The notes below the pieces were generated by a model. The model had not been told where the DNA came from. It saw nothing but the letters and a program-made list of their open reading frames with translations, and made no database searches. Below, one piece after another: positions 5,732 to 37,701 of a DNA stretch of 64,000 nt. How positions within the stretch are numbered: position 1 is the first letter of the stretch; every line of letters begins with the position of its first letter. Both the position numbers and the translations under genes were made by a program. The DNA comes from a virus (Duplodnaviria > Caudoviricetes): IMG/VR virus record IMGVR_UViG_3300037501_000255; one strand, written 5' to 3'.

Positions 5732-7339
5732 TCAGAACTCTCCGCGAGAGAATTCCGCAATGACAGCCGGGGCTGCCGAATCGAATCCAGCTACATCAAG
5801 CATACCGCGATCCGTAGGATCTGCGATCGTGAATGAGCTGGCATTCATACCTACCACAATCAGCCTGGCTGGAATACCCATGCGCTCGCGGTACGAACGT
5901 AGAGCTGTAACCGGCTGCACTCGACCTGCCCACGTTTCATTGTCGGTATAGACAACGAATGTGTCGACAGGCACCTTGGCCTTTTCTGCTGCGATCATTG
6001 GCAGCGCGCAGTCTGTGCCGCCCATCGGGATTACACGCATTTTCTTCATCACGACTTCCAGCGAATCTTGCTTGGCAAGAGGGCAGGAAATGAGACGATC
6101 CGAAAACGCGCTTACCGACACACTCTCTTCTGTACGAAGAGTTGCCATCGCCATTGCCGCTACACCCATGCGTGGGGACATGCCCGGCGAACCGAGAATC
6201 TCTCCTATATCCATGGAGCCTGAAACGTCCAGAGCGATGTGGGTGCGCTTGCCAGATGGCTCAATGAATCCGAATGAAGTGTAGAACAGCTCATTCAGTG
6301 CCTGAGCAACATCCTTGGCTGGAGACCAAGTCAGCTTCCCAAGACGACCCCCACCATTTGTATAGGTGTTGTACGCTGTCAATACGTTGAATGGGTGGAT
6401 GCGCGCGCGCTTAACTGCCTCTGCATTCGACAGCTTGGCAATTACTCGCTTCGCTGCATCGTTACCATTTACCAGCAACCCGTACGCTGTCATACGACCG
6501 AGGTTACGGATGAGGGCATTTAGCGGCATTTTATCAAGAAGAGCATCCCAAACTTCCGGAGAAGTCTGAAGGTTCGTCGGAATGTGCTCGTGCACCAGAC
6601 CGAACTCGCGAATCAGGGGAATGACACTCTTCGCGTCGGGAGCCAACTTAGCCGCTTCAATTGCCAGCAACTTGTTGAAGGCACGCTTGTCGCTAACATT
6701 GTCAAGCTCTACCTTGAGTGAACCCTGCGAAGCAATCCACTTGTAGAACGTCGAGCGGTCATCATTTTCTGGCTTTGGGTGCGCGAGACGCAGAACGTCC
6801 CTATGCGACCAACCTTCGCGCTGACCGTACTTGGTTACATGATACACCAAGGAGTCTAGTTCCTTGTCGTTGTACCAAGACGACACTGCATGCCTCATCA
6901 GGCGGCCCCAACCCGAAGTCTTGCCGACTTTCTTGTGGTAGTCCAAGAAAGTGAAGAGCATAGTTGGGGTGCGGCAGATCTTCTGCACGGCATCAAGAGC
7001 TGCCTTCCTCACTTCAACGCTCTCGTGACGAGAGGCGAGGGCGAGGACGAATAGTGTAGGATCTTGTTTGGCTGCCCGACCTTGAGTAGAGATGGTTACC
7101 AATTCTTCTACAACACGCTTGCCTTCACGATTGAGAAGCGCAGTTACTTGCGGACAATCTGCAATGGTAAGATCTGCATTTTGGCTCGCTGTGTACTGCG
7201 CCCTCTCGCTGCCGAGAATGAGGAATCTGCGCAGGTGATCAAAGCTGTCTGTGGAGAATACGACACCGCCCGCGCCGTTACGCACTTGGCGGTCGTCGTA
7301 CATTTGCTGCTGCGTTGCATTTGGATTGATAACTGTCAT
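5732..7339 (-). CDS. rsr: Ro60/Rsr TROVE-vWA RNA-binding protein
   Basis: QVRNGAGGVVF, LRRFLILGSE, KYGQREGWSHRDVLRLAHPK, ALDVSGSM, GGTDCALPM, YTDNETWAG, DVAGFDS. Confidence 0.98.
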   Translation of the reverse strand: MTVINPNATQQQMYDDRQVRNGAGGVVFSTDSFDHLRRFLILGSERAQYTASQNADLTIADCPQVTALLNREGKRVVEELVTISTQGRAAKQDPTLFVLALASRHESVEVRKAALDAVQKICRTPTMLFTFLDYHKKVGKTSGWGRLMRHAVSSWYNDKELDSLVYHVTKYGQREGWSHRDVLRLAHPKPENDDRSTFYKWIASQGSLKVELDNVSDKRAFNKLLAIEAAKLAPDAKSVIPLIREFGLVHEHIPTNLQTSPEVWDALLDKMPLNALIRNLGRMTAYGLLVNGNDAAKRVIAKLSNAEAVKRARIHPFNVLTAYNTYTNGGGRLGKLTWSPAKDVAQALNELFYTSFGFIEPSGKRTHIALDVSGSMDIGEILGSPGMSPRMGVAAMAMATLRTEESVSVSAFSDRLISCPLAKQDSLEVVMKKMRVIPMGGTDCALPMIAAEKAKVPVDTFVVYTDNETWAGRVQPVTALRSYRERMGIPARLIVVGMNASSFTIADPTDRGMLDVAGFDSAAPAVIAEFSRGEF

Positions 7340-7885: not shown

Positions 7886-8734
7886 TCACTCCTTTGGGAG
7901 TATGCGTGGTAATGGCTCTTGCGTGGTGAAGCCTGCGGCATTAGCGTGACCTCCGCCACCCCAGTGGCGCGCTATTTTACTGCAATCTACTTTACCCGCA
8001 GAGCGGAGAGAGTGGCGATAGGTGCCATCATCTGCACGGTGCCAGATGATGGCGAGCGGGTGGGTCTGGGCTAGTACATTACCGACTTCGCTGTGAAACA
8101 GCGCGGTGTTTACACATGGTACTTGCAAAGTTGGATCATCCAGCATGCATATCGCTGACAAATCTACCATGTAGGCCTTTTCTGCTAGACTCCTAACCTT
8201 GGCATTTTTATACTCAAGAATTGCAGTGCCTTGCACAATAATCTCGCGCATACCCTCTGCGTTAGCAAGGCGATGATTGAATGTCGTGAAATTTTCGAAG
8301 GACGGCTTTACACACTCAAATGCCGTAAGGATTTCTCGAGAGTTGGGGAGCTTCCAATTCCACAAGTCACGATCTTCTATATAATCGATAAGTGGGGGGC
8401 GCGGGGCACTGTGGAAGTGATCCCATGCCATTCCTGCGCCGCTTCTGTTCATATCAAAATGAGCGCCATCGAAATCACACAAATCCTCGTATGCGGATTT
8501 GTGGTGATCCAGGATAAGCAAGCTCTTTGCCCTGAGCTTAATCGCATCAAGTACTTTGCGTGGGTATGAAAAGTCAGCAATGATTACGTGTCTATCATCA
8601 ATTTCGGCGGGAGGCTCGGCGCCATGCAAGGCAGCGTGATAACTGGCCTGCTCACCGAGCGCCTGCCAAATTGCCCATGCCGCCCCGAAACCATCGGAGC
8701 ATTGGGCATGATATATAACGCAGAATTCTTTCAT
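7886..8734 (-). CDS. DHH/DHHA1 phosphoesterase
   Basis: YHAQCSDG, ADFS, LDHH, RSGAG, GGGGHANAAGF. Confidence 0.92.
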   Translation of the reverse strand: MKEFCVIYHAQCSDGFGAAWAIWQALGEQASYHAALHGAEPPAEIDDRHVIIADFSYPRKVLDAIKLRAKSLLILDHHKSAYEDLCDFDGAHFDMNRSGAGMAWDHFHSAPRPPLIDYIEDRDLWNWKLPNSREILTAFECVKPSFENFTTFNHRLANAEGMREIIVQGTAILEYKNAKVRSLAEKAYMVDLSAICMLDDPTLQVPCVNTALFHSEVGNVLAQTHPLAIIWHRADDGTYRHSLRSAGKVDCSKIARHWGGGGHANAAGFTTQEPLPRILPKE

Positions 8735-18411: not shown

Positions 18412-20622
18412 TCATTGCTTTTCTAGAATGAGAAATTCTACCCGGCGATTCCTCTCGCGCCCGGCCCTCGTCGTATTGGGCGCAACGGGCTTAGATTCGC
18501 CATGACCCAATGAAGACAAGCGCTCTGCAGCTACGCCGGCCTTAGCCAGGAAGGCTACTACCGCCGCAGCTCTTTTTGCACTGAGGCGCTGATTGTAGGA
18601 GGTACTTCCTTCAGATGAGGTATGCCCTTCAACTGAAAGCAATCGAATCTCAGGATGTTCCTTCAAGGCAGTAACCACATCTTCAAGAACATCGAAGCTT
18701 TCTGGTCTGATGCGGTCCGAGTCAAAGAAGAAGTATATCGGCTCCAGTATAACAATACTATCTGGCCCCACGACCACTTTCTCGGTCTCGGGACAGCCAT
18801 CAGCATCCTCAAATCCGTCGAAATCCTCCGGGTCTTCTGGGCAAGCATCACTCCCGTCAAGAATACCATCCCCATCCGAATCAAGGGGCGCCGGTGGAGG
18901 GGGAGCGGGTTCTGCAACAGGAGTGACGGCAGGAGTGACCTTTTTTGGTGCAAAATCAAAGTCAAAACCAACCGTGGCCAAGGCTCTTACGTCCGGCGTG
19001 CCAACATCAGGCATTAAGCCAGAACCAACAGAGGCGGTGCCGAAGATGGGTCCGTTACGCCCCCTAAGACCAACGGTTGCTTCGAGAGGTAAAAATAAGC
19101 GATTTGAAAAGAGGTGATTTACTGAGAAGCTCCCTCCCACATCGGCAATCGCCCACAAATGATCATCAATGAGGCGCACCTGCCCACCCAAGGACGCATT
19201 GACAGTATGACCTATTTGCAGGTCTGCGACAGCCTTGGGCGCACGAAGTGTATAGCTGGTGTCCAGCATTACAGAAGCCGCCTCTCCTCCTGTCGAAAGC
19301 AGAACTCCGGGCGATACGGTTGGCAGGGATTCTCCGAGAAGCGGAAAGCCATTAGATGATACAAGCGATGTCGGTAGAGAACCTCTTAGGCTAAAGGCTG
19401 CGCGCACAGGTGAATCTCTTTCAGTCAACCTAACGCGCACACCTCCCATCATATCCTGAAGGCCTACTGCAGGTACATCACCTAAATCAAATCCCGGACC
19501 AAACGCCAGAGAAGCGGGCAAGCTGAGATCTAACTGGACGAAATCCGCAAGGCCAAATGCTGCATTTATTCTACCTGAGAATTGGTGCTCCACTAAGTTT
19601 ACGCGCTTGGCGAAGTCTGAATCCCGCAATACAACTGGAGCATGCGAGTAGTCTAGACCTGCGCTGGTCTGAAGCGTTAGTTCCGGAAGTGTATCCGCAG
19701 ACGCAGCTTGCGGTGTATCTACAGAAGATACTGGCCCCGTGATGCGATTTAATCCCTCCGCATTAACTGCGGTGGCCGCCATAAGCATAACGGACATTGC
19801 TATTGTCTTGCTACGCTTGCCGAATACAAGAAGAATGGGAAAGAGTAGCGCCAGGAATCCAATGCCAGAGCTGGGGGAGTTTGAACAGGAGAATAGTCCA
19901 GACCCAGAGACAAACAACGCCTCATCGGAGGCGCCTGCCCTATCCGGCTCACCCTCTCCCTCGGAGACCTCACCTTCACCCTCTCCCTCGCCGCCGAAAC
20001 AGGCATCGAATTCCTCATCACAAGACTCATTTTCAGGACATGGAAGGACGCTGGTTACACACAACCCATCATCGCACAGCTCATGCCCGTCACAAAACAA
20101 CCCATTTGAGCAATCATTATCGCACGTGCACTCTGGAGGGGCGGTGCAGACATTCTCTTCCTCAAGACATACCTCGCCTAAGCAAACCTCTTCGGAAGAT
20201 GATGAGCAAGTACCACCAAGGCAGGTCTCGACCCCGTTGCAAAACAGGCCGTCATCGCAGTCCTCATCACTTACACATTCCGGAGGAGAGGAGCACACAT
20301 CCGTATGTTCATCACATAGGGAGGCGTCCGCGCATGGAGGTTGCCCAGCAACACATTCTCCTAGCTCGCATACCTCACTGCCATCGCAGAAAAAACCATT
20401 GTCACAGTCAATGTCGGTCTGACATTCTGGCGGCGCCGCACAGGGACACTCTCCCAGGCAGTCACCATGCGCCAGATGCGCATCCACAGCATGCTGATCG
20501 ACCTCGATTTCATGGTGGTCATTATGACAAATCTCAACTTTTTCATGATGAGGGTTGTCGCGGTCAGGGAGCGCGCTGGCACCCCCCGCTAGTAACATCA
20601 CAGCTAACACATATCTGATCAC
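18412..20622 (-). CDS. OmpA-family protein with Cys-rich CxxDxDCDxGxFCxG repeats, EGEGEG tract, MYXO-CTERM-like segment, TSP3-like motif and OmpA C-terminal domain
   Basis: signal peptide; DSDGDGILDGSDACP; IYFFFDSDRIRP, VEGHTS, LSAKRAAAV, GHGESKP, NRRVEF. Confidence 0.9.
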   Translation of the reverse strand: MIRYVLAVMLLAGGASALPDRDNPHHEKVEICHNDHHEIEVDQHAVDAHLAHGDCLGECPCAAPPECQTDIDCDNGFFCDGSEVCELGECVAGQPPCADASLCDEHTDVCSSPPECVSDEDCDDGLFCNGVETCLGGTCSSSSEEVCLGEVCLEEENVCTAPPECTCDNDCSNGLFCDGHELCDDGLCVTSVLPCPENESCDEEFDACFGGEGEGEGEVSEGEGEPDRAGASDEALFVSGSGLFSCSNSPSSGIGFLALLFPILLVFGKRSKTIAMSVMLMAATAVNAEGLNRITGPVSSVDTPQAASADTLPELTLQTSAGLDYSHAPVVLRDSDFAKRVNLVEHQFSGRINAAFGLADFVQLDLSLPASLAFGPGFDLGDVPAVGLQDMMGGVRVRLTERDSPVRAAFSLRGSLPTSLVSSNGFPLLGESLPTVSPGVLLSTGGEAASVMLDTSYTLRAPKAVADLQIGHTVNASLGGQVRLIDDHLWAIADVGGSFSVNHLFSNRLFLPLEATVGLRGRNGPIFGTASVGSGLMPDVGTPDVRALATVGFDFDFAPKKVTPAVTPVAEPAPPPPAPLDSDGDGILDGSDACPEDPEDFDGFEDADGCPETEKVVVGPDSIVILEPIYFFFDSDRIRPESFDVLEDVVTALKEHPEIRLLSVEGHTSSEGSTSYNQRLSAKRAAAVVAFLAKAGVAAERLSSLGHGESKPVAPNTTRAGRERNRRVEFLILEKQ

Positions 20623-24390: not shown

Positions 24391-25212
24391 TTATAAATGG
24401 TTAAAATCTTCTCGCAACTCATTTACGCAGTCTGCAAAAGCAGGTGTTCGCTCAATATGATCTACCCAGGCCAGCCCTCGCTCAGCTAGGTTGACTTCTT
24501 TTTTTATGTGGGCGCCAGGAATAGGCGAACCGTTGTCATCAAAGTCTCTGCCCATAAGCCAGACCTTGTCTGAAATCTGAACTGATGAACCTATGTCGTG
24601 AGTCACAACAACAATAGTCATCAACTCATCCATGGCTGCGACATCTCGGATTAGTCGACACGCTTGATCTTTCATTACCGGGTCTAGTCCAGAGAATGGC
24701 TCGTCCATCAGCAAATACCTTGACCCTGCCATAAGCTGCTGAGCAATTGCGACCCTCTGTCGTTGGCCGCCAGAAATTTCCGCCGCATAATGCAGAGCCT
24801 TATCCTCCAGTTTAAAATGGCTCAGGAGCGACCTTGCTTTATCATCGAGCTCTGAGCCTTCTAGACCAGCAATCTGTCCCGCCACAATGAGATTTGACCA
24901 GACAGTTCTGTGCTCAAAAAGCGGGTATGTTTGAGCGACAACTCCGACCATGCCCGGCTTGACCGGGGTCTTCTGAACTCCGACTGTCACCGTCCCAGAG
25001 TCTGGCTTCGAAAGTCCGGCAAGAATTTTGAATAGCTGAGTTTTGCCAACACCGGAGGGTCCTAGCAGACCTACAACCTGACCCTGAGAATGTCCGGGGC
25101 GATGAACGTTGTGGATGGAAAGATTCACGTCTCTGAGAATCTGGGTGCCGCCAAGACTCAGATTTACACCGGAAGCTTCAAGCAGAACGTCGCTGTAGTG
25201 AAACGCATTCAT
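24391..25212 (-). CDS. ABC transporter ATPase (TauB/NrtD-like)
   Basis: GPSGVGKT, ISGGQRQRVAIA, LLMDEPFSGLD, VTHD. Confidence 0.95.
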   Translation of the reverse strand: MNAFHYSDVLLEASGVNLSLGGTQILRDVNLSIHNVHRPGHSQGQVVGLLGPSGVGKTQLFKILAGLSKPDSGTVTVGVQKTPVKPGMVGVVAQTYPLFEHRTVWSNLIVAGQIAGLEGSELDDKARSLLSHFKLEDKALHYAAEISGGQRQRVAIAQQLMAGSRYLLMDEPFSGLDPVMKDQACRLIRDVAAMDELMTIVVVTHDIGSSVQISDKVWLMGRDFDDNGSPIPGAHIKKEVNLAERGLAWVDHIERTPAFADCVNELREDFNHL

Positions 25213-25982
25213 GTTTTGATATTCCTGAGATCGGAGTACGGACACAGCAGCCTTCGGACCCAATTTATAGCATAGTCCTGTAGAAGGCCGAGTGCAAGAA
25301 TGATAAACTGCAATGCAAAAACAGAGCTTAGATTAAAATGCTTGTTTTCATTCAGGAGCATTGTGCCAAGTCCGCCTTCGGACCTAACAAGACCCTCAAC
25401 CATCGTAAGCATCATCCAGCCAATCGCAGCATTCTGTCGAACAATCTCAATAGCCTCATGCATCGTTCCCAGAACAACGACCTCCCAAACAGTACGCCAT
25501 TCGGACATGCCAAGAGTCCTTGCATGATCAAGTTTTTCTTGCGGAATTGAGCGAACAACCGATGACATTCCGGTCACTAGAAATACAGACATGCCGAAGA
25601 CAAGAAGTCCAAGCTTCAATTCATGGCCTGCCAGTGCAAGGCCGAAAAGGAACGTAAGGCCAGTTAGACCCAAAAACCTGAGCTTAGCAAAGAATTCAAC
25701 CGGAGGTCTAAATGCCGGAAGGACTGTAATGTATGCCAGCCCCAGGCTTATGACGGTAGAAAGTCCGATGGCTTCTAGATTCAGCCAAAGACTTGTGAGA
25801 AGATCTTGAAGAAGACCGCCGTTCCACAAATGCGGAACGGCGGAAAGCACGTCAACCGGACCTGGGATGATAGCAGATGGACTTAGTCCCCACGCGACAA
25901 ACAGGGCGGTAGCCCATGTCGCATAAAGCATGCGACGAAGATTTTTCGTCACCACTCTGTGCGGATTAACCAAGTCCATCAT
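25209..25982 (-). CDS. ABC transporter permease (TauC/NrtB-like)
   Basis: multiple TM segments; IPQEKLDHARTLG EAA-like loop, EGLV..GGLG. Confidence 0.92.
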   Translation of the reverse strand: MMDLVNPHRVVTKNLRRMLYATWATALFVAWGLSPSAIIPGPVDVLSAVPHLWNGGLLQDLLTSLWLNLEAIGLSTVISLGLAYITVLPAFRPPVEFFAKLRFLGLTGLTFLFGLALAGHELKLGLLVFGMSVFLVTGMSSVVRSIPQEKLDHARTLGMSEWRTVWEVVVLGTMHEAIEIVRQNAAIGWMMLTMVEGLVRSEGGLGTMLLNENKHFNLSSVFALQFIILALGLLQDYAINWVRRLLCPYSDLRNIKT

Positions 25983-25994
25983 GCCACTCTCCTA

Positions 25995-27808
25995 TTAGCG
26001 GTTCGACTTAAGGATGATATCAACTCGCCGATTCTTGGCTCGACCATCAGGCGTATCATTGGGAGCGGCCGGAGAATCTTGGCCATGAGCCACTACAACC
26101 AGTCGCCCGCTTGGGAAGTTAGCTGGCGCAGTTCGCTCAAGGAAGGACTTGACAGCATTTGCACGAGCAAGAGATAGAACTTTGTTGCTCTCGGGGTTTC
26201 CGACATTATCGGTGTGTCCGTGAATCTCAACCACGGTATCGCTAGCAACAACGAGGGCCTTGGTCAGATCATCAAGCTGAGACGAAGCGCCCTTGCCAAA
26301 AGTTGCCTTTGCAGTATCAAAAGTGATGTGCCACGAACGCTTAGCGATTACCTCGCTCGTCACAGGGGCCTCGGTAAACACGGGTGCATCAACAACACCC
26401 TTGGTCGCTCCACTTTCAAGAATAGACTGAATGAACGAAGTGTTCAGAATATCGGTAACGGGAGGGTAAGACGGCAGGTCGGCAGGATACTGCTGCTTAG
26501 CAATATCGCCAAACAGAGTGTAGGTTGCAGCGTAGGCATTAGCGGCACCCGGCTCAAGACCAAAGTACCGCACGTTATCAGCCAGATTGAATACGCGAGA
26601 ACCGCCGAGGGACACTAGGTTGCCCTGAGCATCCTCCTCTTCGACACCGCGATAATACTTGGCCCAATATGCCCCAGTCTCTTCCTTATAGATTTTAGCA
26701 CTAGCGTCACCAGCCCGGCGAAGCACAGTCATGCCACCACTCTTGACCAGATCGCCACCCTCAAAGATGGCCCTAAGCATACCTTCGACCACAGGCCGGT
26801 TCTCGCTATTCCACTTCTTGATACCAATGATTGCATTGGCCATCTGGCTGCCATTCTCTCGGGTAGAAAGAACACTCACCAGACCGCCCTTCTTCTTAGC
26901 AACAGCAACATCGCCAGGAGTCCAGGTAACAACGCCGTTCACGCAAACATTGCGGGTTTCGCCAACTCGCTTGCCATTCTTGACAACGGGGCGGTCTTCA
27001 CAACATGCACCCTGAATATACTTCTCATCAGCCTCAACAAAGGAAGGGGTGCTTACCCAATTGAGGCAATCGGGGTCATAGGTGGTGGGGTCAGGGTTGT
27101 TGCAAATCTCGTTCTCTGCAGCCCAGAACATAGCAATGTTCCAATCGCCATCCTTGAGAACTCCGGCCACAAGCAAGCCTCGGCCATTCTTGGCATCCTG
27201 AGCCACAGCCGGCGGGGCCATGAATTTATCTTCACCAAAGGAGCGACCAGCACTACCAACAATCTCAGCAGTATACTCGGGACCAAGCTGAGACAGCTGA
27301 GAATTGAGGCCAGCGAAAAATGCGGGACCAGCATCACCCATGATAGTGACAAAGTTGGCGCCATTCGTACAGTTCTTCTTGCCGGAAGCGAGCTGACTTG
27401 CGCAAGTTACAAGTTCGGACTGCATCTTGCTATAGTCATCCTGTCGCTCAATATCAAGATTGAGCCCGTGCTTCTGCATCAGGTAGTTCGAGGGCCGCCG
27501 TTAGCGAGAGCGAGACCCATCTGACTATTCCAGGGAATAACCAGCATCTTTACCTTAGCCCCACCCTTAGCCAGAGCGTCAGATGGCAGCGAAAGGTCCT
27601 CGGGAGCCTTGGTAGCCGGGGCGGCGCCCTCCTTGAAATCTTCGAGTTCCTCGGCCTTGGTGGGAACCACGGACGCCATGCGGGCATCCCCGTGGTTCAC
27701 CACATACCAACGAGCACCAAAAACACCCATGCCAATGACAAGGGCTGCGGCAAGAACCTTGGGACCGGTCTTGACCTTAACACGACGACGAATATCACTC
27801 ATTTTCAA
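25995..27808 (-). CDS. periplasmic substrate-binding protein fused to an OmpA C-terminal domain; split by a frameshift near 27485
   Basis: N-part with TM anchor ..IPWNSQMGLALANGGPRT; C-part GRSFGEDK, VTWTPGD, FDTAKA, IHGHTDNVG, LSLARANAV, NRRVDI. Confidence 0.85.
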
Positions 27809-33946: not shown

Positions 33947-34165
33947 AGACAAATACCTTTCCGCCCCTACACCTAGCTCGCCAACCCGCATCGCGACATA
34001 TTTTTAGCTAGTCGCGCAGCATTCTCCGGATCTTCGAAACCAAGAAAGCGAAATGTTGTGCGGTCACGGTCGCCGGATGGCCGCAGTAGAACCTTGCACG
34101 TATCCGCCTGTCGCTGCAAAAACTCTTTACTCAATAGGATCGACATCAAATATCTCGTAAGAAAT

Positions 34166-34236
34166 TAGGTCAAGGGGCGCGGTCAGCATTTTTTTCAAAG
34201 TGTTGGTTTGACGATAACTGAACCACATCGGACCTA
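34166..34236 (-). ncRNA. stand-alone Y RNA, animal-like architecture (Y1)
   Basis: UAGGUC-C-GA/UU-GACCUA bulged helix, UGUGGUUCAG/CUGACCGCG upper stem, UUAUC at loop start, CCCC internal loop. Confidence 0.85.
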
Positions 34237-34244
34237 AATCAATT

Positions 34245-35316: not shown

Positions 35317-35406
35317 CCGTACACTAGAAGGATTTGAACCTCCGACCTCGGGCTCCAACAGCATGACGCAATGCCTGCGCTCTCCCAGGCTGAGCTATAG
35401 GTACGG
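35317..35406 (-). tRNA. Pro-like tRNA scaffold with a 19-nt anticodon loop
   Basis: TAGCTCAGCCTGGGAGAGC D-arm, CAGGC-ATTGCGTCATGCTGTTGGA-GCCCG, GGAGG-TTCAAAT-CCTTC. Confidence 0.65.
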
Positions 35407-37571: not shown

Positions 37572-37701
37572 TGGTGGGGACGGAGGGACTCGAACCCTCA
37601 TGCTGTTTAGGCGCAGGAATCTTGGCGATTGGTGTCGGAGTCGAACCAACATATACCTTACCAATCAAATCCTGTGTGTCTACCAGTTCCACCACGTCCC
37701 C
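37572..37701 (-). tRNA. tRNA-Leu(TAG) interrupted between nt 34 and 35 by a 44-nt mini-tRNA
   Basis: Leu scaffold GGGGACG-TGGTGGAACTGGTAGACAC; CAGGA-TTT[insert]AGAT-TCCTG; variable arm; ACCA; 86 nt without the insert. Confidence 0.9.
37623..37666 (-). other. 44-nt mini-tRNA insert 1
   Basis: GATTGGT-AAGGTATAT-GTTGG-TTCGACT-CCGAC-ACCAATC-GCCA. Confidence 0.9.

Follow-up and report, generated by a model that had tools for sequence, protein, structure and literature searches.

Does a tailed phage encode a Y RNA of the kind known from animals and, if so, what might it do there? The question is raised by a 71-nt hairpin, here called Ya, on the minus strand at positions 34166-34236 of a 64,000-nt stretch of viral DNA (Caudoviricetes; IMG/VR record IMGVR_UViG_3300037501_000255), the whole of which we refer to as the window. 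Y RNAs and Ro60, the latter an autoantigen in lupus and Sjogren's disease, have mostly been studied in animals and a few bacteria, and the first-pass annotation of the window had taken the hairpin for a minimal, animal-like Y RNA that would be relevant to Y RNA origins. We find Ya to be a genuine and conserved RNA, very probably a Y RNA of minimal type, and a member of a widespread phage family, apparently undescribed so far, that is tightly linked to Ro60 genes. Judging from sequence, it would likely dock the phage's own Ro60 through its lower helix, with a loop that probably serves a second partner.

Sequence, fold and clade-level conservation of Ya

Read on the minus strand from 34236 to 34166, Ya has the sequence UAGGUC-C-GA-UGUGGUUCAG-UUAUC-(loop)-CUGACCGCG-CCCC-UU-GACCUA followed by AUUUCUU, exactly as first annotated, and its unconstrained minimum free energy (MFE) fold (-18.6 kcal/mol, z -3.0, with 2/200 shuffles equally good) agrees with the layout then proposed. 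The lower, Ro60-type helix of 6–7 bp is formed by a 5′ strand UUAGGUC-C-GA (34228-34237), in which the bulged C is 34230, and a 3′ strand UU-GACCUAA (34165-34173), giving a G.U and an A-U pair above the bulge and seven pairs below it when the stem is extended by one U-A pair (34237/34165). A CCCC internal loop on the 3′ strand (34174-34177), the counterpart of the opposite-strand bulge of animal Y RNAs (PMC4726728), separates the lower helix from a 9-bp upper helix with one bulged U, the two arms of which (5′ strand 34218-34227, 3′ strand 34178-34186) also stand out in an alignment-free duplex test (z -2.8, p 0.013). The hairpin is capped by a 31-nt loop (34187-34217) that opens with UUAUC (34213-34217) and contains an A-rich single-stranded tract (AAAAAAAUG). 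Neither ARAGORN nor Rfam (tRNA, tmRNA, YrlA) finds a tRNA-like domain at Ya and the loop holds no T arm, which bears out the claim that the element stands alone without a tRNA domain.

The window contains more than one such hairpin. The heptamer GGTCCGA occurs there 13 times against 5 expected (0/100 shuffles get to 13), and a covariance model seeded with Ya only retrieves two paralogues (E 3e-6 and 0.014) and nothing else credible in the whole 64 kb. Both are of the same minimal type and lie on the minus strand: Yb (40782-40860), which has an extra hairpin within its loop and starts 5 nt past a tRNA-Val gene (40866-40940), and Yc (40654-40719), which has a GUG-CAC upper stem and starts 2 nt past the CCA end of a tRNA-like minihelix. 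They score 74.5 and 66.2 bits, respectively, with R2, a family covariance model built from eight clade sequences (Ya among them). The upper helices of Ya, Yb and Yc are wholly unlike in sequence (UGUGGUUCAG, UGGUUAGA and CUGUGGA), each being complementary to its own partner strand.

Orthologues occur in related contigs, where a gene from the open reading frame list serves as the synteny anchor. This gene (P0001; 34245-34505, minus strand) encodes 86 aa of unassigned function, has relatives at 72–80% identity, and ends with a stop codon 8 nt before Ya; in contigs L210 and L211 it has a Ya orthologue behind it (63.7 bits and 47.7 bits, respectively). A further Ya-type copy is found in L212 (30 bits), and Yb-type copies in L206 (165-254; this contig is identical to L213) and L214 (319-408). 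Each orthologue folds alone into the Ya architecture, and substitutions in the helices are compensated: the upper helix of the Ya orthologues has A-U in place of G-C and of U-A, the lower helix of Yc has C-G in place of A-U, and the extra hairpin of the Yb orthologues has GCUC/GAGC in place of GCCC/GGGC. Apart from the compensated pair in Yc, the 5′ strand of the lower helix is unchanged in all eight members of the window clade. Across these eight distinct sequences 91.3% of cells are paired, against 78.9% in shuffles (0/500 as high), and eight pairs are altered on both sides (0/500 shuffles), with slid controls at 19–45% paired. The Ya hairpin is thus more than chance, because it has paralogues and syntenic orthologues and because GGTCCGA is in excess. 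The 3′ half of another Yb-type copy lies at the edge of contig L205 (1-35), where it is syntenic with the copy in L206.

A phage RNA family adjoining Ro60 genes

Does the hairpin have relatives beyond this clade, and where do they lie? R2 was scanned on 71 loci (1.3 Mb) reaching ±10 kb round distant Ro60 genes (36–46% identity) in IMG/VR. It returned 36 matches, at least one in 27/71 loci, and every one of the 36 is on the Ro60 strand; 33 lie upstream of Ro60 by 66–2829 nt (median about 260 nt) and the other three downstream by 52–430 nt. Placement upstream of Ro60 is also the arrangement of bacterial Y RNAs (PMC4201824) and of those of Thermus phage phiLo (PMC12135203). Ya scores 78.9 bits with R2, but as one of the sequences from which the model was built, and the independent members beside Ro60 genes score 18–41 bits. 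The family pattern, to which Ya conforms, runs NNN-GG(G/U)C-[C]-GA, a variable helix of 7–10 bp, (G/A)UUAUC, the loop, the second helix strand, a C/A-rich internal loop of 4–7 nt that is present in all members, and UUG(C/A)CC-NNN; almost no variation is seen at the bulged C, in the GA/UU step or in (G/A)UUAUC.

A single covarying pair in the lower helix (G-C 18, U-A 10, G.U 5) distinguishes GGUCCGA/UUGACC, the form of the window clade and of animals, from the GGGCCGA/UUGCCC of most phages. Most relatives having the latter form, an exact-string scan of the 71 loci for GGTCCGA...TTGACC proved misleading, with 13 matches against 12–24 in shuffles and hence at background, and it was the covariance model that found them. 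Two other searches were rejected: pattern scans of a viral-contig collection gave chance-like matches in coding sequence, and a pattern search of five whole Ro60 jumbo-phage records gave 2 matches against 12 in the reversed control.

Pairing is conserved throughout the family. In an alignment of its 34 distinct sequences (A6), fitted to R2 in a way that inflates pair counts, 90.1% of cells are paired (65.2% in shuffles), both sides are altered in 16/18 pairs, and the covariation score reaches 0.642 (0.196 in shuffles), none of 500 shuffles being as high in any of the three and slid controls being 33–44% paired; the lower helix is 97.6% paired with 7/9 pairs altered on both sides, and in the upper helix 9/9 are so altered. 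This fitting tells against our interpretation, and two independent checks were therefore added. Given a plain MAFFT alignment, RNAalifold predicts the lower helix de novo, with compensatory changes at 6/6 predicted pairs. MAFFT alignments mis-register the variable upper helix, for which model-based alignments and an alignment-free test of the arms were therefore used; the latter gives p <= 0.05 in 33/34 sequences (mean z -3.5), and arms pair with their own partner at a mean duplex energy of -10.8 kcal/mol, against -4.8 with the arm of another member.

Two explanations that would deny Ya any kinship with Y RNAs can be judged on these data. That the hairpin is due to chance, or is a repeat without function, is favoured by the weak Rfam scores given below and by nothing more; orthologues, paralogues, compensatory changes, synteny and the link to Ro60 effectively refute this, and we give it next to no credence. 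That it is instead a terminator, or a 3′-UTR hairpin stabilizing the message of the 86-aa gene, with an incidental likeness to Y RNAs, is suggested by its start so close behind the stop codon and by the 5–6 U found in the 8 nt past the stem of the three window copies. Yet a terminator scan finds none at Ya, the hairpin is 71 nt long and interrupted by a bulge and an internal loop beneath its 31-nt loop, the bulged C and UUAUC are invariant though unpaired, and the family tracks Ro60 genes. The U tract, moreover, is missing from the Ya orthologues, where AAUACUU, AAUACAA or AAUUACA stands in place of AUUUCUU, and at least 5 U in the 8 nt past the stem are found in only 11/34 family members. We therefore hold the terminator explanation to be very improbable. 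By the same comparison the AUUUCUU tail, as it is not kept in orthologues, is no RNA polymerase III-like signature.

Not all family members are minimal. Three long-loop members (L003:9655-9780, L061:8820-8942 and L020:9714-9853) have a T-arm-like hairpin in the loop and are probably of YrlA type, so that the family includes minimal and YrlA-type forms, sometimes in tandem. Among cultured phages, Streptomyces phage Quaran19 has an R2 copy of 41.4 bits about 400 nt upstream of its Ro-like gene (gp130); cultured members such as this, with their RNAs unannotated, make experiments possible. The Quaran19 copy belongs to an unannotated tandem pair of candidates between tRNA-Asp and the Ro-like gene (L223:2372-2569; ON260828.1 about 80070-80267), comprising a long-loop copy (L223:2372-2490; 119 nt, 13 bits) by the tRNA-Asp gene and the minimal copy (L223:2492-2569; 78 nt). 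A weak candidate in Gordonia phage Mareelih (L222:5934-6012; 15.4 bits, E 0.07) is set between the tRNA-Ile and tRNA-Met genes of a tRNA array downstream of the Ro-like gene, echoing the placement in the tRNA array of the window, and mycobacteriophage LinStu also has a weak family candidate.

Probable Ro60 docking, proposed processing, and the tRNA array

What, then, might Ya do? Its presumed partner is a 535-aa Ro60/Rsr orthologue (5732-7339, minus strand; Pfam vWA_Ro60 2e-63, TROVE 1.9e-44) encoded 26.8 kb downstream on the same strand, which retains the residues aligned to Xenopus K170, R174 and H187; these we take to be Y RNA-binding and cavity residues. The lower helix of Ya, UUAGGUC-(bulged C)-GA paired with UUGACCUAA, would be the docking site for this ring protein, and the upper helix, conserved in pairing only, would act as a spacer. 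The A-rich loop tract after UUAUC probably holds the second partner, likeliest a 3′-to-5′ exoribonuclease such as host PNPase, by analogy with the Ro60–Y RNA–PNPase complexes of Deinococcus and phiLo (PMC4201824, PMC12135203). So placed, the Y RNA may gate or tether Ro60 during infection, in the surveillance, decay or repair of structured or damaged RNAs, a role that would fit the surrounding tRNA array and RNA-repair genes.

Several observations weigh against such docking. Although Ya is on the rsr strand, the distance between them is beyond the 4-kb linkage by which bacterial Y RNAs are defined; Yb and the copy in L212 have G-A instead of G.U beside the bulge; and no promoter or terminator is predicted at Ya. 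In the syntenic slot of L205 (5225-5307), furthermore, only the 5′ half of Ya persists, in decayed form, in a relative that keeps Ro60 at 80% identity, and this copy of Ya is therefore dispensable. The remnant is identical to the 5′ half of the L211 copy and follows an inserted SET-domain gene.

Some of this would suit a different explanation, in which Ya is a genuine family member with a main job other than Ro60 docking, be it the processing or punctuation of the tRNA array or an action of UUAUC and the upper stem as in animal DNA replication. The clade copies are unlinked from Ro60 and sit among tRNAs and tRNA-like elements, one relative has lost Ya and kept Ro60, and in animals UUAUC and the upper stem work independently of Ro60 (PMC4726728). 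The most conserved part of the RNA is nonetheless the Ro60-contact helix with its bulged C, the copies of distant phages lie directly upstream of Ro60 on the same strand, and upper-stem sequence varies freely, with GUG-CAC in some members only. We consider a main function apart from Ro60 unlikely and prefer to regard Ya as a probable docking RNA of the phage Ro60.

The separation of Ya from its presumed partner is not peculiar to the window. Throughout the clade with Ro60 at 55–80% identity (L216-L220, L225-L228) the 10 kb to either side of rsr contain no family member, and the relocation of the Y RNAs to the tRNA region is therefore a clade feature; one R2 match (L227:12271-12323) was dismissed, having no lower stem. 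Y RNAs that are unlinked from rsr and embedded in tRNA arrays are missed by a 4-kb search rule. The same clade keeps the gene order HSP20, DHH/DHHA1, 89-aa gene, Ro60, with the three genes directly upstream of Ro60 (L216-L219, L226, L227), and the DHH/DHHA1 phosphoesterase (NrnA/RecJ-like; 7886-8734 in the window) is a candidate for a nuclease that partners the Ro60 particle.

How would the RNAs be released? The window is phage-like, with 21–22 tRNA genes, every one on the minus strand. Lying past the stop codon of the small gene, Ya would probably be freed from a longer transcript, and Yb and Yc have a tRNA and a tRNA-like minihelix as neighbours, which tRNA-processing enzymes may cut. The minihelix (40722-40773, minus strand) lies exactly between Yb and Yc and consists of a short acceptor stem, one stem-loop, a T arm (GGUGGUUCGAAUCCACC) and a CCACCA end; it could direct cutting by RNase P/RNase Z and so release both RNAs.

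Elsewhere in the array, on the minus strand, loop-capped Y modules are carried on tRNA-like scaffolds with acceptor stem, D arm, T arm and CCA. Three have their bulged C at 43262, 43372 and 43810, and two more, at about 44001-44030 and about 41125-41170, were parsed by hand; one example reads CGAUUUC-AACUU-UUGAAC-UCCU-GUUC-C-GA-CA-GAAAUCG-GUUAUC. In these both ends of the RNA lie in the tRNA acceptor stem and the Ro-type helix is capped by a 3–6-nt loop, which is the opposite topology to that of YrlA. A strict descriptor finds three of them against 0–1 in shuffles, and the MFE folds of the tRNA-scaffold elements are ambiguous. Y modules linked to tRNA are therefore not lacking in this phage. 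Genes for tRNAs of similar build, whose inserts end in GGUUAUC ahead of the T arm, are found upstream of Ro60 in L063. Four Rfam tRNA calls in the window, all on the minus strand, are oversized or were missed by ARAGORN (40994-41060, 35324-35400, 37575-37701 and 43311-43436); one is of 67 nt, one carries 16 inserted nt in its anticodon loop, two measure about 126 nt, and the element at 43311-43436 harbours one of the loop-capped modules.

Further genes in the window encode RlaP, ClpB, an MnmA-like enzyme, UvdE and the DHH/DHHA1 phosphoesterase, and the Y RNA family together with the phage RNA-repair genes suggests a module, run by the phage, for RNA quality control or anti-defence. A near-identity search of INPHARED with the window gave tRNA-Met matches only and thus no close relative among deposited phages, and searches of a viral-contig collection with the neighbouring genes likewise gave no close relatives. 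The window also encodes, at 24391-27479 and 18412-20622, the ATPase and permease of an ABC transporter and two large proteins with OmpA domains; this OmpA/ABC block is also found near Ro60 in L228.

Comparison with animal, bacterial and phage Y RNAs

How far does the likeness to animal Y RNAs go? Compared with 4,227 Rfam families, Ya fits animal Y_RNA best (RF00019; 21.4 bits, E 0.017) and nematode sbRNA next (RF01656; 16.0 bits), and the alignments to these two families run over the full length. Yc scores 32.6 bits (E 3.5e-5) with RF01656 and 20.6 bits with Y_RNA, and Yb 22 bits with RF01656; among rsr-adjacent members, L063 reaches 27.2 bits and Quaran19 33.9 with RF01656 and 19.2 with Y_RNA. 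The Rfam comparison that had been suggested for Ya thus picks out the expected family, but all Y_RNA and sbRNA scores are under the gathering score of 38 and do not amount to formal Rfam membership, a point that also counts against the identification. Searches of the whole window at gathering thresholds and of 2.5 kb at E <= 10 gave no Y RNA match, and the sub-threshold matches surfaced only in very short search spaces. The YrlA model (RF02553) matches none of the minimal copies and nothing in the window, 41–44.2 kb included, and gives a sub-threshold match only on an element next to the L063 copy; the animal Y RNA and sbRNA models, that is, recognize the phage family better than does the bacterial one.

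Animal Y RNAs are marked by a helix with a bulged C, a bulge on the facing strand, an upper stem and a loop that opens with UUAUC, a motif conserved in the loop of nematode sbRNAs too (PMC4726728); Xenopus Ro60 contacts GGUCCGA (PMC4201824). Ya has all of these hallmarks and is very probably a Y RNA, as first annotated. Its lower helix lines up column by column with the Y_RNA consensus, and it shares with vertebrate Y RNAs and sbRNAs the GGUCCGA/UUGACC helix with a single bulged C and G.U and A-U pairs, the pyrimidine-rich bulge on the opposite strand, the upper helix, UUAUC at the loop start, a size of 70–100 nt and a Ro60 gene in the same genome. Unlike animal Y RNAs, Ya is shorter, has a 31-nt loop, and is phage-encoded in a bacterial cell, with neither RNA polymerase III nor La; its family does not conserve the 3′ U tail. 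Of the GUG-CAC upper-stem motif Ya has GUG paired with CGC rather than CAC (G-C, U.G, G-C), Yc the exact form and Yb neither part. The description of Ya as animal-like holds as far as its motifs are concerned, but these are not special to this phage: the animal-like U-A pair covaries with G-C across the family and is all that separates the lower helix of Ya from the common phage form.

Does this likeness reflect descent? The minimal Y RNAs of Ro60-encoding phages may be truly homologous to those of animals and to the sbRNAs of nematodes, as the shared docking helix, opposite-strand bulge, upper-stem layout and UUAUC would suggest, though we hold this tentatively and think it somewhat less probable than its contrary. 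The protein offers no pointer to a direct animal link: in full-length alignments the phage Ro60 scores 454 bits with human Ro60, 440 with Xenopus Ro60 and 380 with Deinococcus Rsr, but about 500–540 bits with bacterial and phage homologues (47–51% identity). Phage Ro60 thus has, in sequence comparison, no special affinity to animals. To our knowledge, reviews consider prokaryotic Y RNAs too divergent for homology with those of vertebrates and other animals. If homology were true, in contradiction to those reviews, the whole animal Y RNA architecture would be older than animals and would have travelled with Ro60, possibly via phages, and UUAUC would be an old part of the Ro60 particle and not something that animals invented for DNA replication, the only setting in which the motif has so far been discussed. 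The invariant UUAUC of the phage family makes its role in the Ro60 particle testable, as well as whether the animal architecture is ancestral.

Among bacterial Y RNAs, YrlA, which is widespread in bacteria and also known from mycobacteriophages, resembles Ya in having its Ro60-binding stem made by the RNA ends and differs in its internal tRNA-like domain. The contrast first drawn between vertebrate and bacterial types is incomplete, as Chen et al. (2014; PMC4201824) had described second bacterial Y RNAs that have no tRNA module either, namely Yrn2 of D. radiodurans and the YrlB RNAs of S. Typhimurium and M. smegmatis, and phiLo Yrl1 and Yrl2 are minimal as well. Compared by description, Yrn2 and YrlB are, like Ya, long end-closed hairpins with a Ro60-binding sequence and without a full tRNA-like domain that occur beside tRNA-linked Y RNAs in the same genome; they lie no more than about 2–4 kb from rsr and were found by immunoprecipitation, whereas Ya is 27 kb away, multicopy and phage-encoded. 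Most rsr-adjacent family members (GGGCCGAAG) fit the bacterial GNCGAAN0-1G motif (Chen et al., 2014; PMC4201824), which Ya does not match, since GGUCCGAUG has U for the first G and CGAU for CGAA.

Yrl1 and Yrl2 of Thermus phage phiLo are phage-encoded hairpins that bind the phage Ro60 and form a ternary complex with host PNPase (NAR 2025; PMC12135203). They too are stem–bulge–stem hairpins partnering a phage Ro60, there with binding shown experimentally; they differ in lying directly upstream of Ro60 and in being defined by CGAA in a large bulge, with UUAUC not mentioned, and the phiLo Ro60 is very distant from that of the window (23 bits, E 2e-4). Ya, as an end-closed hairpin with a Ro60-binding sequence and no full tRNA module in a Ro60-encoding genome, falls within the minimal definition of a prokaryotic or phage Y RNA. 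Its kind is already known from bacterial YrlB and Yrn2 and from phage Yrl1 and Yrl2; what is new is a large phage family with the animal-type layout, UUAUC included, its presence in multiple copies, and its separation from rsr in the window clade.

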